A stretch of DNA of 63,992 bases, counting the filler, from an uncultured Methanosarcinales archaeon (GTDB taxonomy: Archaea; Nanobdellota; Nanobdellia; Woesearchaeales; CALCXY01), in NCBI GenBank assembly GCA_964385185.1. It is 4 parts of 4 records of this genome, joined end to end, with 100 filler letters (N's around TTAATTAATTAA, not from the genome) between each part and the next. Parts side by side here need not be neighbours in the genome. Positions count along the whole stretch, not along the records: positions 1 to 26,077 come from CAYLOA010000015.1; 3 more parts are not named here. The stretch is one strand, 5' to 3'. Position numbers: made by a program. This document shows, piece by piece, positions 1 to 3,000 of this stretch. How positions within the stretch are numbered: the first letter of the stretch is position 1; each line of letters opens with the position of its first letter.

Positions 1-3000
1 AATATTCTCATCATGGAACTTAACATCCACTCCAGCAGCCATTAATCGAGCTCCTTGAGTAAGCATTGCTGTCGGTAAATATACATGTCCAATAGCTTCC
101 TCTTCAGCAGAGGAAGCATAATTATGCCTTTGGTTTATCATATCAATTGTTACCATTGTTTATCACAATATAGTGATAACATACACAATTCATTAAACCT
201 ACGAGCATATTTTGACCGATTTATAGATATACTTAAATAGAATAACACACTATAACGAAAATATGAAGAAAATTCACCTCGATTTAACGGATAAAAAGAT
301 CCTAGAACTATTAGACCTAAACTGCCGTATCTCTAACGCTCAAATAGGAAAAAAAGTACATAAATCAAGAGAGGCAGTAAAATACAGAATCGGGCAACTC
401 CAAAAGAAGGGAGTTATAACCAATTTCATCACTTCTATCAACCCCAACAAATTAGGCTATCTAATGTTCAAGGCATATCTCAAATTAGAAAACATTCCTA
501 ACGAAAGAGAAAAATTCTACAAGGAACTAAAAGAAAACAAAGACATATACTGGATGGGAATTTCAGATGGAGCATACGACTTAGTATTTGCCATCCTCTC
601 ACCTTCAATTACAGAGTATTACACAAAAGTCAACAACCTCCTTTCAAAGTGGCAACATCTGATTGTATCAAAAGTCCTAGGAACCATGGTAGATACAACA
701 CAATACAACAAGAAATTCTTCACCGACAATAAAGAAGGGTCATACGTTGTCTTAGGAGGCAACCAAGTCCAAAATAAAGTAGACTCCTTAGACTCTTCAA
801 TCTTAAACATCCTAGCAAACAATGCAAGAATCCCTTTAGCAGAACTTGCAAGAAAAGTTTCTTCAACCATAGAAATTGTAAGGGGGAGAATAAAAAAATT
901 AGAAAAAAATGAAATCATCTTAAACTACAGAATTGCAGTAGACTTTAACAAATTAGGTCTAGAATTTTTCAAAGCAATCATCTATTTCCGTTCACTCTCA
1001 GAAAAAGATGAAAAATCTCTTTTCGAATGGATGAGAGTCCACCCAAAATCTTTATACTACATCAGATCATTAGCCCCCTGGGAAGTAGAATTTGAATTCG
1101 TTGTTCCCTCGTATCAAGATTTTAACGACATTATCAACGCATTAAGAAAACAATTCCCTCATGTAATAAGAAACTATGAACACTTAATCATGATTGAAGA
1201 AACCTGGATGCCTGCATATAAAGAAATGATCCAACCTGCAATCTAATTTTTCTTACTTAAATATTCTTCTTTAGAAATTTTCTTAACAATCCCTTTATGT
1301 GCATCAACTTCAGCATAATCTCCATCTTGCAACACTCTGGTTGCAATCTTAGTTCCAATGACACAAGGTTTATTCATCTCTCTTGCAACAATTGCTGCAT
1401 GACTCGTCATACCACCCTGATCGGTTACAAAAGCTGCTGCTTTCTTCATAGCAGGAACAATATCTGGATCTGTTGCAATACTCACCAAAATATCTCCTTC
1501 ATTCATCTTCGCCATATCTGCTGGACGAATTACTTGTTTAACTTCTCCAACTGCATACCCTAAACAACCGGTTTGTCCAACCATTTCATCAACATCACCA
1601 ATCTTTTCTTCTTGAATCTGTTCTGACAACTTTTTAGCTTCATTCCTAATATATACTTCTTCAAAATCTTTCTCACAATAATGAACACTAAACTTAGTCC
1701 TGCTATCTAATACCTCTCTATCCACCTTCCCCTGAATCAGAGCTTCTTCTATTTCTTTGGTCAACATGAATCTAGACTGCATATAGGATATATGTAATCT
1801 TCGAGCCAATTCTCGAACTAAAGGTTCCATTCGGTACAAGGCATACATCTGCCCATAACGTCTATAGATCTTCGTAACCATAAAATCTCCAAATCCTTTG
1901 AATACTTTTCTCCATTTGTCCTCAATGTTAAGTTTATCTAACAAATCTTCTCTCTTTTGCAAAGAATCTTGAAATTCCTTTTCTTTACTTTTCAACAAAG
2001 TTAACGCATCTTTCCCCTCGGTGATAAATTGAGTAATTTCTTTGAGATAGTGCTCAAAACTATGTACTCCACTTTTCCCAATCCACATATAGGTGACATA
2101 GTGATATTTTTCATAATGTTTTTGCAATTTTTCCCATATCTCTTTTGAAAAATCTTCCTTTACAACATTTGGAAATTTTTTTACAAGAGTACTATCCTTA
2201 TATATGAGTGCTGCAATTTCTAAGAATTCTTCCTCTTCAAGTTGAATAAGACTTTTACTTGTTGGCTGAGTTAAAATAGTAAAATATTCATTTAAAGGGT
2301 CCTCACCAACACCAATTTCTATCAAATATTCTTTGATTTTCTTAGTAAAATTCCCATGAAACATATCTACTCCTGCTGGCAACCAACACCATCGATAAAA
2401 TTCTGTGTGCAATCTATCCTGTTCTGTAAAGTACCAAGACAATTTTTCATTACTAAGACTTTCCAATTTCTCTCTAGGAATACTATCAGCAAATGTTCTT
2501 AATTCATCAGAAACAATTGGAATATTCTTATTAACTTCTTCAATAAATCCATCTTCTTCTAGAAATTTCTTAGCTATATGATCTCCAACTTTAAAAGAAT
2601 CTTTTTCACCAAAATAAAACCAAAGATGACTCCCTCGGTGAACAGTCATCACCTTCTTATAGGCAATACCTCCAGGGGTTTCAAACTCATTGGCAAACCC
2701 ACTCATACAAATTTGAGACCAAAAAAGGTCACAATCTGGAATATCTTCTGCCAACATCCACGAATCATCATCATTGAGATATTTGGAGTTCATCATACCT
2801 AATAATGAACCATAATTTAAAAACTTTCCCTCAATATAATATGAGCAAAAACCTTATATAACCTTCTCTCATTCTAAAACTAATGAAACTATCAATAGAA
2901 GACATAACAACATTCTGTAAAAAGAAAGGTTTTGTCTATCAGAACTCCGAAATATACGGAGGTATAGCAGGATTCTGGGATTACGGTCCATACGGTGTTG

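Follow-up and report, generated by a model that had tools for sequence, protein, structure and literature searches.

A headless rifampin phosphotransferase-like protein of a DPANN archaeon, a candidate body of a split dikinase with a shared ATP-grasp head

The stretch of DNA analysed here (the window, 63,992 nucleotides) carries near its beginning a gene for a protein that ends in a swivelling phosphohistidine domain and has no ATP-grasp domain of its own. The question raised by this locus is how the histidine of such a protein could be charged. The earlier note had described three proteins of this kind in the genome, each resembling the substrate-binding part of rifampin phosphotransferase (RPH) followed by the swivelling domain, together with one free-standing ATP-grasp domain, and had suggested that this single "head" serves several substrate-specific "bodies" in trans. 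The features that bear on the question are collected in Table 1.

The window gene overlaps, tail-to-tail, a gene at 263-1246 for a double AsnC/Lrp-type regulator. The window stretch was also found in DNA runs labelled as marine, seawater and hydrothermal-vent metagenomes.

Table 1. Features of the window gene (positions in the window) and of the related genes on other contigs (contig:positions)
Feature	Position	Strand	Basis
ORF for a predicted RPH-type split-dikinase body, 517 aa (C15-type orthogroup)	1243..2796	-	ORF and translation; stop codon at 1243-1245
Substrate-binding domain, residues 1-400, folded like the rifampin-binding domain of RPH	1597..2796	-	VIA-align and Foldseek
Basic helix K309-I-Y-R312-R313, aligned with RPH R666, E667, K670	1858..1872	-	Translation KIYRR; HMMER alignment to 5fbs
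Swivelling phosphohistidine domain (PEP-utilizers), residues 402-517	1246..1593	-	PF00391 and structural matches
Codon of His466, predicted phosphate carrier, motif GGMTSHAAIVA	1399..1401	-	Translation and conservation
Body, 403 aa, TTG start	C5:28543-29754		Genome scan
Body, 476 aa	C45:4058-5488		Genome scan
Fourth body (~354 aa), N-terminal part, open frame running off the contig end	C63:1922-2581	+	ORF
Fourth body, C-terminal part	C28:14271-14741	-	ORF
Free ATP-grasp head, 308 aa	C25:12459-13385		PF01326
Free-standing swivel-domain protein, 133 aa	C2:15386-15787	-	PF00391

Domain content and fold of the window protein

The reading frame begins with two ATG codons, the first of which gives 517 residues and the second 516. 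The earlier note had counted 516; the frame itself stands, the limits in Table 1 follow the first ATG, and residue numbers are shifted by one because of this choice of start codon. A Pfam scan placed PF00391 at residues 432-502 (E 9.7e-27), the sole family above its cut-off. Four further matches each fell below their own cut-off, the scan revealed neither an ATP-grasp domain (PPDK_N) nor a PEP/pyruvate barrel, and residues 1-400 had no family in the local copy of Pfam. The NCBIfam PEP-synthase equivalogs covered only residues 404-508 and scored far below their thresholds (NF005057, 115.6 bits vs 598; TIGR01418, 104.8 bits vs 739.75). The PPDK_N domain, the PEP-utilizers_C barrel and the above-cut-off score expected of a PEP synthase were all absent, which supports the view, put forward earlier for the three bodies first described, that the protein is not a PEP synthase. 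The single chain with ATP-grasp and the above-cut-off score expected of RPH itself were absent as well (NF041857, 64.6 bits vs 999; NF000283, 49.2 bits vs 1700).

The AlphaFold2 model of the window protein had a pLDDT of 95.5 and a pTM of 0.91. Its best full-length structural match by VIA-align was RPH-Lm, model residues 4-508 lying on RPH 321-867, that is, on the rifampin-binding domain and the swivelling histidine domain, with Z 18.7, an rmsd of 5.2 Å, 444 aligned residues and about 15% identity in the structural alignment. Foldseek returned RPH-Lm entries at ranks 1-6 (E 1e-13 to 1e-11). For the swivel domain of the model, the swivel-like domain of pyruvate kinase 2e28 matched with Z 19.9, and the PPDK and Enzyme I swivel domains matched with Z 14-17. 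A profile of the body family matched the RPH structures 5fbs, 5hv1 and 5hv2 (E ~4e-31, profile positions 174-511 on chain residues 514-866), while the match to PEP synthases was confined to positions 390-510, much as had been reported before. The model thus supports, more strongly than had been possible before, the proposed order of an RPH-like substrate part followed by a swivel domain. The first ~150 residues, formerly said to match nothing, have their structural counterpart at the beginning of the rifampin-binding domain of RPH.

In an alignment of 59 sequences of the body family, G461, G462, H466, A467 and A468 were invariant; these are the residues previously listed, from the second ATG, as G460, G461, H465, A466 and A467. 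H466, present in 59 of 59, aligned with the catalytic histidine of RPH and of PEP synthase. In the HMMER alignment to 5fbs, K309 fell on R666, I310 on E667 and R313 on K670. K309 and R312 were kept in at least 90% of the 59 sequences, and the position of I310 was variable across the family. R666, E667 and K670 are phosphate-binding residues of RPH, the roles of R666 and K670 being taken from PMC4844700, and E667 positions the catalytic histidine.

A phmmer search of 1.84 billion representatives gave 24,467 family members at E<=1e-3 and 2070 at E<=1e-30, where 2071 had been counted before. Homologs of the window protein in CPR bacteria and DPANN archaea were 47-55% identical over 92-99% of the length. 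P0132 (819 aa) is a head fused to a C15-type body. Bodies in general were diverse, 104 of them falling into 71 clusters at 38% identity.

Among the matches listed, 31 of 120 C15-type homologs had at least 575 residues and carried N-terminal extensions; those tested were DNA-binding domains. A winged helix (HVO_A0114/IclR/ArsR/MarR-like) was fused to the C15-type orthologs at loci L017, L029, L030 and L031, and an XRE-type HTH_3 to the ortholog P0024; the fusion domains of P0024, P0032, P0067, P0074 and P0112 were taken from precomputed Pfam. That two unrelated DNA-binding domains are found in this position, and that the window gene overlaps a regulator gene, would suit a protein whose main work is regulatory, as a transcription factor or signalling module that senses a ligand or is controlled by phosphorylation, with the head as its kinase in a histidine phosphorelay. 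We regard this as improbable. No DNA-binding domain is present in the window protein itself, which keeps the RIF-BD-like pocket fold and has basic residues at the positions aligned with the phosphate-binding R666 and K670 of RPH, and about 89 of the 120 homologs listed have no extension. Moreover, enzyme-repressor fusions such as BirA and NadR keep catalysis, so a DNA-binding fusion does not exclude an enzyme.

Heads, bodies and a free swivel domain in one genome

Profile scans of the whole genome (G000; 1,297,047 b, 1.30 Mb, 85 contigs) gave two matches to PF01326, namely a complete PEP synthase on C35 and the free head on C25, one match to PF02896, on C35, and six to PF00391. The genes on C5, C45 and C25 were found where the earlier note had placed them, with the same lengths, and the identities among the C15, C5 and C45 bodies (29.0% over 431 residues, 32.5% over 203 and 28.6% over 353) agree with the 23-33% over 200-430 residues given there. 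The number of bodies rises from three to four, since parts of another lie at the ends of C63 and C28, which share an exact 55-bp overlap. Similarly, the four PF00391 proteins that had been implied become six, including the free swivel protein on C2. The inventory of the genome is then four bodies, one free swivel domain, one free head and one complete PEP synthase. The swivel domain of the window protein was up to ~58% identical to other copies in this genome and matched PEP synthase 8a8e with E 2e-26.

The free head covered positions 2-312 of the 328 in the PF01326 profile (E 1.5e-104). In a 42-sequence alignment of heads, G19, G20, K21, R111, S112, S113, T115, E117, D118, E289 and Q301 were invariant. 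The C25 protein falls in a large family of free heads of 306-340 aa, 50-61% identical, in which the ATP-grasp residues are kept. The free head resembled archaeal PEP-synthase heads, with E 1.9e-125 to 8a8e. The head profile matched chain 9goj (387 aa; 2.3e-84), which is mentioned in PMC12167813 and which we take to be HpeI. In the head tree, computed without locus L070 (from G243), the C25 head lay outside the clade of PEP-synthase heads with 100/100 support. It had been conceded earlier that this gene could be what is left of a second PEP synthase; its place outside the clade, its own family of free heads and its intact ATP-grasp residues argue that it is not. A complex prediction of body and head, run without controls, scored 0.00 and gave no verdict, and weighs neither for nor against binding.

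With the assembly in 85 contigs, one body broken at contig ends and one with an N gap ~870 nt upstream, the free head and the headless genes might be taken for assembly artefacts or for decaying pieces of former PEP synthase or RPH genes. We give this reading practically no credence. It is already contradicted by the numerous full-length orthologs of body and head, many of them on contigs 100 kb to 1 Mb long, by the invariant catalytic residues, by the compact AlphaFold2 model and by the fully supported branch that splits the head from those of the PEP synthases.

Arrays, giant proteins and one-head genomes among relatives

A survey of 49 related loci in CPR bacteria and DPANN archaea, with heads counted within the retrieved flank, revealed tandem arrays of bodies with a single free head. 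A head was present at 21 of the 49 loci, as 12 free heads inside or beside tandem arrays, 4 giant fusions and 5 single-chain head-body proteins. Heads were adjacent to bodies at loci such as L016, L018, L027, L028, L031 and L043. The head of L028 was accompanied by 6 bodies and a 104-aa swivel protein, and there were 5 bodies alongside the head at L027, 7 at L043, 4 at L018 and 3 at L016. Each giant protein had exactly one head, combined with seven GG..H.AA motifs in L036 (4201 aa) and L046 (3111 aa) and with four in L044 (2374 aa) and L051 (2388 aa). At the remaining 28 loci the flank held no head; several of these were on short contigs, but L021, L017 and L029 had full 10-kb flanks.

No conserved non-dikinase partner emerged from Pfam searches of 70 neighbouring ORFs at 12 loci. 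The neighbours of the CPR arrays were often housekeeping genes (FtsW, MurG, VirD4-like, MnmA). Transporter genes (Liv-type ABC, SSF symporter) and HAD phosphatases also occurred as neighbours of dikinase genes, and Bro-N, Fic and DUF4143-ATPase genes were interspersed in the arrays L026 and L042. Some array ORFs without a Pfam family (326 aa in L016, 321 and 202 aa in L018, 282 aa in L043, 239 aa in L027) were considered as swivel-less bodies, as was a 342-aa protein encoded upstream of the free swivel gene on C2, which has one homolog only and a GxGxxG...EKP pattern that is presumably Gfo/Idh/MocA-like. None was significantly similar to the body profile (best E 0.027-1.4), nor were they similar to one another, and the idea was rejected.

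Five array genomes had exactly one high-scoring free head each (315-325 aa), together with 7 (G266), 8 (G267), 21 (G268), 5 (G269) and 13 (G270) orphan His-domain ORFs, many of them far from the head; G268, a genome of 1.4 Mb, had no PEPS-type head at all. Co-occurrence was read row by row in these genomes and in 31 relatives, among which orphan bodies were patchily distributed, with 0 to ~25 copies. A head not of the PEPS type (at least 327 bits) was present in 5 of 5 body-rich genomes (at least 3 orphan bodies; G000, G251, G046, G263, G257) vs 0 of 26 others, a split that overstates independence because the relatives are kin. One genome, G008, had a weaker free PPDK_N protein (148 bits) and no orphan body. 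Counts over 251 genomes of the phylum (PF01326 in 239, PF02896 in 224) were dropped for co-occurrence because PPDK genes each give several PPDK_N matches, so that the counts are not copy numbers; the unpublished genomes G242 and G243 entered these tallies only, and no claim is based on them.

It could be argued that the bodies act without the free head, which would have another job. HpeH alone, according to PMC12167813, moves phosphate from 4-phosphoacetophenone to acetovanillone. The head of G000 adjoins no body, as it and the bodies (C15, C5, C45, C63/C28) are on separate contigs, in unrelated neighbourhoods and not in one operon, and more than half of the loci surveyed lack a head in the flank. 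Against this, heads are embedded in body arrays or fused with bodies in one protein, bodies and non-PEPS heads co-occur in the relatives, and G268 offers its 21 orphan ORFs a single free head and none of the PEPS type. Independence from the head is in our estimation quite unlikely. The arrays, the giants, the five one-head genomes and the co-occurrence among relatives support the original suggestion of one head for several bodies, and we infer from this comparative genomics that the bodies would be charged in trans by a single free head.

Known split dikinases and a possible mechanism

Action in trans has been published for the two-component dikinases PpsAB, CreHI and HpeHI, in which, according to PMC12167813, the head presents ATP to the body, an H581Q mutant is dead and a stable complex is absent. 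PasAB is a further case (PMC7500099, which with PMC12167813 is the source for PpsAB). HpeHI (Rhodococcus), CreHI (Corynebacterium), the phenylphosphate synthase PpsAB (Thauera) and PasAB (Desulfatiglans) have the same split into a body, RIF-BD-like with a C-terminal swivel domain, and a separate head of ~310-390 aa, and they have the same His motif, a likeness that for HpeH, CreH and PpsA follows published descriptions, the direct sequence comparison being that of chain 9goj with the head profile. RPH is the only solved structure spanning the whole body. According to PMC12167813, 473 residues of HpeH align with 5FBT; for the window protein, 444 residues align with RPH. The features of a two-component dikinase found here are the RIF-BD-like and swivel body, the GGxT(S/C)HAA motif near the C terminus (H466 of 517) and the separate PPDK_N protein; adjacency of head and body was seen in relatives and not in G000.

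The differences are equally clear. The published systems are 1:1 side-by-side pairs in bacterial aromatic-catabolism clusters, whereas here one head accompanies 4 bodies, and 5-21 in relatives, and the bodies are often dispersed, in long tandem arrays, or fused, up to 7 with a single head. They occur in DPANN archaea and CPR bacteria, whose genomes are small and offer no aromatic-catabolism context. What appears to be new is the number of bodies per head (4 to ~20), and no papers on such arrays or giants in CPR or DPANN were found in the literature library searched.

RPH-Lm (5FBS/5FBT/5FBU/5HV1) shares with the window protein the fold of residues 321-867, basic residues at R666 and K670 (K309 and R313) and a catalytic histidine near the C terminus. 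Unlike the window protein, it is a single chain that includes an ATP-grasp domain (residues 1-314); E667 is not conserved and nothing points to rifamycin substrates. With PEP synthase the swivel domain is common and the free head resembles the archaeal heads, but the body lacks the TIM barrel and the head, the domain order is different, and G000 has its separate complete copy. The swivel domain is also shared with PTS Enzyme I / HPr-type phosphorelays (Z 12-17), and the free 104-133-aa swivel proteins are in concept like stand-alone phosphocarriers; however, no PEP-binding domain is present, no HPr/EII genes were seen, and the donor would be ATP, through the ATP-grasp head.

The product of the window gene is probably the substrate-specific body of a two-component dikinase of the RPH / PpsA / HpeH type that acts on small molecules, with the single head of G000 shared among the bodies. 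In the proposed mechanism, 1) the free head would bind MgATP, 2) the swivel domain of the body would dock on it and His466 would attack the beta-phosphate, 3) the gamma-phosphate would leave as Pi and AMP would depart, 4) the swivel domain would return to its own RIF-BD-like domain, and 5) His466~P, positioned by K309, R312 and R313, would phosphorylate a hydroxyl (or an amine) on the small molecule bound there. Overall, the reaction would be ATP + X + H2O -> AMP + Pi + X-P. The C15, C5, C45 and C63/C28 bodies would each have their own substrate, and the head may also serve the free swivel protein on C2. Counting against this explanation are the dispersal of head and bodies in G000, with operon linkage in relatives only, the 28 loci with no head in the flank, the variable counterpart of E667, the DNA-binding extensions, which could mean a regulatory rather than purely catalytic role, and the free PPDK_N protein of G008 in a genome with no orphan body.

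With the same mechanism the role could be detoxification, the battery of bodies phosphorylating antibiotics or toxic natural products as RPH does with rifamycins. RPH is indeed the closest solved structure, the paralogs are extremely diversified, their distribution is patchy and prone to expansion, and the arrays L026 and L042 contain the Bro-N, Fic and DUF4143-ATPase genes. This role is doubtful nonetheless. No defence model of PADLOC-DB 2.0 was matched by the body, the head, the free swivel domain or any of five array-embedded ORFs, the window protein is far under the RPH cut-offs of NCBIfam, and the transporter and HAD phosphatase neighbours would suit uptake or salvage equally. The C15-type orthogroup occurs once per locus across CPR and DPANN at ~45-55% identity, which is more in keeping with a conserved metabolite than with a variable toxin.

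More tentatively, the two-component dikinase may belong to a hub-and-spoke system of CPR and DPANN organisms. A single head would feed a large, fast-diversifying set of modules (4 here, up to ~20 elsewhere, up to 7 per polypeptide), whose phosphorylation of many membrane-permeant or imported host metabolites would trap or salvage them. The C15-type protein would be the most conserved module and, because of its frequent fusion to DNA-binding domains, may be both enzyme and regulator for one core metabolite.

Because the trans principle has already been published, what makes these proteins interesting is their stoichiometry, the giant fusions, the hosts and the substrates. Genes of this family are usually labelled "PEP synthase", "PEP-utilizing enzyme" or "phenylphosphate synthase", and such annotation distorts metabolic reconstructions of CPR and DPANN; a DPANN metagenome paper (PMC8091004) took such genes as evidence of phenol degradation and remarked on the absence of the carboxylase. 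The data indicate a large family of split RPH-type dikinases, with an unusual one-to-many architecture, that can take up a sizeable share of very small genomes, as the 21 copies in the 1.4 Mb of G268 illustrate. Should host-derived metabolites or natural products prove to be the substrates, the family would be relevant to the ways in which ultra-small symbionts obtain small molecules or render them harmless, and would offer biocatalysis a ready-made toolbox of ATP-driven modular small-molecule kinases. If the hub-and-spoke reading is true, ultra-small symbionts would have a general way of capturing metabolites that has so far gone unrecognised.

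Putative dikinase parts in the genome

The body gene of the window (contig C15), comprising the rifampin-binding-like substrate domain and the swivelling histidine domain, was an open frame of 517 codons that opened with two consecutive ATG codons; the 516 aa previously given is the count from the second. The contig belongs to a genome of 1,297,047 bases in 85 contigs, rated 100% complete, of a low GC (~35%) archaeon with FlaI-like ATPase genes, whose relatives in the genome collection are labelled Nanoarchaeia, Nanobdellota and Woesearchaeota. An archaeal-type GlyRS gene adjoined the body gene, which overlapped an AsnC/Lrp-type gene tail-to-tail by 4 bases at the stop ends (1243-1246).

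The swivel domain PF00391 was the sole above-cut-off Pfam match of the protein (residues 432-502, E 9.7e-27), and four further matches all fell under their cut-offs. Matches of the NCBIfam PEP synthase equivalogs were confined to residues 404-508 and reached 115.6 bits, where the cut-off is 598; the rifampin phosphotransferase (RPH) equivalog scored 64.6 bits (cut-off, 999).

A scan of the whole genome gave two matches to the ATP-grasp head PF01326 (C35 and C25), one to the PEP/pyruvate barrel PF02896 (C35) and six to PF00391 (C15, C35, C5, C45, C28 and C2). Together with a family profile match on C63, the genome thus has four bodies, one free swivel protein with little besides that domain, one free head and one complete PEP synthase. 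The ends of C63 and C28 shared an exact 55-base overlap, and the two pieces would form a single short body of ~354 aa if whole. The earlier note had listed three bodies (C15, C5 and C45), all of which were recovered with the pairwise identities it gave (29.0% over 431, 32.5% over 203 and 28.6% over 353 residues); its observation was real, but its count was slightly low; the fourth body was absent from it. The 342-aa protein encoded directly upstream of the free swivel gene belonged to no Pfam family and had one homolog only.

Coordinates of the genes and domains discussed (motif, GG..H.AA)
Feature	Location	Strand	Details
AsnC/Lrp-type protein	window 263-1246	+	327-aa frame, two AsnC/Lrp-type HTH units
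C15 body	window 1243..2796	-	517 codons, open frame
PEP synthase, complete	C35		808-codon frame; PF01326, PF02896, PF00391
Free-standing head	C25:12459-13385	-	308 aa; PF01326
Body	C5:28543-29754		403 aa, TTG start; PF00391
Body	C45:4058-5488		476 aa; PF00391
Fourth body, C-terminal part	C28:14271-14741 to contig end	-	PF00391
Fourth body, N-terminal part	C63:1922-2581, off contig end	+	family profile match
Free swivel protein	C2:15386-15787	-	133 aa, intact GGITSHAA; PF00391
Liv-type substrate-binding protein (Peripla_BP_6)	C25:13442-14533	-	
LivH/LivM/LivG/LivF-type permease and ATPase genes	C5:23346-26652	-	
Giant, single ORF	L036:7997-20602		4201 aa, 7 motifs, head C-terminal
Giant, single ORF	L046:1646-10981		3111 aa, 7 motifs, head N-terminal
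Giant, single ORF	L051:5174-12340		2388 aa, 4 motifs, head N-terminal
Giant, single ORF	L044:11081-18205		2374 aa, 4 motifs, head C-terminal
Winged helix (HVO_A0114/IclR/ArsR/MarR-like) on C15-type body	L017:9713-10042, L029:9719-10048, L030:2782-3111, L031:9695-10024		
Fic/DOC, Bro-N and AAA_14-DUF4143 ATPase genes between bodies	L026:1438-2478, 4646-5488, 159-1280, 6962-8302; L042:15360-16187		

Structure of the body and family of the free head

An AlphaFold2 model of the C15 body, calculated from an alignment of 59 sequences, had a mean pLDDT of 95.5 and a pTM of 0.91. In a Foldseek search of the PDB, ranks 1-6 were six RPH-Lm entries (E 1.3e-13 to 1.3e-11), and VIA-align placed model residues 4-508 on RPH 321-867, the entire rifampin-binding domain and the swivel domain, with a Z of 18.7 and an rmsd of 5.2 Å for 444 aligned residues. 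The earlier note had given no match for the first ~150 residues; since the alignment runs from residue 4 onward, this caveat is void at the level of structure. Other evidence in the earlier note was reproduced, namely 1) the invariant histidine loop, in the 59-sequence alignment, 2) the profile match to RPH (E about 4e-31) and 3) the family size, 2070 representatives at E<=1e-30 on repeat; at E<=1e-3 there were 24,467.

The HMMER alignment to 5fbs equated K309, I310 and R313 with RPH R666, E667 and K670. According to PMC4844700, these three residues of RPH-Lm bind the phosphate under transfer and keep His825 in position; resistance was abolished in R666A and E667A. The C15 body is basic at two of the three positions; the glutamate is not kept. 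K309 and R312 recurred in 90% or more of the 59 sequences, and at position 313 arginine was the majority residue.

Judged from its sequence, the free head on C25 appears to be a functional family member. The G19-G20-K21 loop, R111, S112, S113, T115, E117, D118, E289 and Q301 were invariant in an alignment of 42 head sequences; we take these residues, in part from Lys22 and Arg117 in the RPH paper, to bind ATP and Mg. When the search was restricted to proteins of 169-539 aa, 7995 of 8000 scored candidates had E<=1e-20; the homologues among the matches listed were mostly 306-340 aa long and 50-61% identical, many on long contigs, and included head plus swivel proteins of 448-506 aa and one head-HAD fusion. 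By sequence, the head profile ranked the archaeal PEP synthase 8a8e (1.9e-125) ahead of the RPH ATP-grasp domain (1.3e-97) and 9goj (2.3e-84). A maximum-likelihood tree was built from 30 head domains, omitting 20 of the 30 PEP synthase loci for speed, the duplicate L034 and the unpublished L070; in it the 11 PEP synthase heads formed one clade on a long branch with 100/100 support. The C25 head fell outside this clade, nearest to the heads of two DPANN giants (L044 and L036).

A gap of 56 nt separated the head gene from a Liv-type substrate-binding protein gene upstream of it, and the C5 body lay ~1.9 kb upstream of Liv-type permease and ATPase genes on the same strand, possibly a link between uptake and phosphorylation, or coincidence.

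Arrays, fusions and one-head genomes

In CPR bacteria as well as DPANN archaea, members of the family were very frequent. Among 7997 scored candidates, 2111 proteins matched the C15 body at E<=1e-5, the best 120 of which were 47-55% identical across 92-99% of the query, about 31 of them having at least 575 aa. One genome of each species was scanned, which yielded 49 loci with flanks of up to 10 kb; body and head then served as queries against their six-frame ORFs. Bodies very often formed same-strand tandem arrays, and the GG..H.AA motif was kept in 95 of 104 bodies (300-700 aa).

A head was present in 21 of the 49 loci, as 12 free heads (counting a 90-aa fragment in L025, a contig-cut head in L033 and both of the near-identical records L026 and L034), four giants and five single-chain head and body proteins of 691-854 aa (L048, L050, L053, L059 and L064). 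None of the 49 loci had two true heads, and each of the four giants contained exactly one full head domain. Free heads of ~311-343 aa occurred in or beside arrays in L016, L018, L020, L026, L027, L028, L031, L032, L034 and L043; L028 had six bodies back to back with a 104-aa swivel protein and a head, and in L043 the head was followed by seven His-domain genes. The 819-aa P0132 was a C15-type body with a fused head. Further giant frames of the same kind, in which 4-7 bodies are strung together with a single head, were seen in genome G046, on C7 (2815 aa) and C1 (6471 aa).

The five array genomes G266-G270 each had a single high-scoring free head (a 315-325-aa frame, 321-340 bits), with 7, 8, 21, 5 and 13 orphan His-domain ORFs, respectively. 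Those in G268 and G270 were mostly distant from it, an arrangement shared with the window's genome, and G268 had no PEP synthase-type head at all. In a sample of the window's genome (G000) and 30 relatives, a head of at least 327 bits not of the PEP synthase type was found in all five genomes with at least three orphan bodies (G000, G251, G046, G263 and G257), free or within a 1653-aa giant, versus 0 of the 26 others, the genomes being kin. G008 had a weaker free PPDK_N protein (148 bits) without any bodies. In the PEP synthase frames of G251 and G258 (1201-1230 aa), PF00391 was split (profile 1-35 and 34-72, ~1.2 kb apart) by what looks like an intein at the catalytic histidine loop.

The 104 bodies fell into 71 clusters (38% identity, 70% coverage). 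The C15 type was the exception, a single orthogroup of 19 in 18 loci, one per locus, in CPR bacteria and archaea. Since its three archaeal members (own genome, L016 and L021) were scattered among CPR bacterial ones in a quick FastTree, the sequences hint at exchange between domains. At their N termini, C15-type orthologs often had a DNA-binding domain, which was of one of two unrelated kinds: a winged helix or, in P0024, an XRE HTH_3.

No conserved partner was found among the neighbour genes. Fic/DOC, Bro-N and AAA_14-DUF4143 genes interspersed in L026 and L042 suggest that some arrays are in variable or mobile regions. HAD hydrolases adjoined the arrays L016 and L028, and an SSF symporter gene lay within L043. 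Free swivel ORFs of 104-132 aa were present in L028, G251, G263, G266, G267 and G268. In the ESM Atlas, stand-alone proteins of ~310-320 aa matched the substrate domain without the swivel (TM 0.85-0.90 by row), a lead only to a role for the free swivel proteins.

Precedent and proposed mechanism

Two-component dikinases and the split architecture are already published. Dexter et al. 2025 (PMC12167813) describe one, HpeHI, in which HpeI is the ATP-grasp head (1.8 Å structure), H581Q abolished activity, HpeH alone moved phosphate between substrates and the two proteins formed no stable complex. PasAB, for aniline, is a further case (PMC7500099). These systems are all 1:1, each pair lying in a bacterial aromatic-catabolism cluster. 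An architecture with one head for many bodies, poly-dikinase giants and the CPR/DPANN spread appear undescribed in the literature searched. PMC8091004 reports 'phenylphosphate synthase' genes annotated in hydrothermal DPANN genomes, with the carboxylase noted as missing; these are taken to be genes of the same kind as the bodies here.

The arrays, fusions and one-head genomes support the earlier reading of one head for several bodies, with trans-charging as the inferred step. The C15 protein probably forms the body in a split dikinase of the RPH type with a shared head. The data establish the architecture, the fold, the conserved residues and the association, fusion and stoichiometry of heads and bodies, from which the charging in trans, the reaction and the class of substrate are inferred; the mechanism is held as probable, any particular biological role with less confidence. 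The single free head would charge His466 with the beta-phosphate of ATP, AMP and Pi would leave, and the phosphate would pass from His466 to a small molecule held in the rifampin-binding-like domain. One head would be common to all bodies of the genome.
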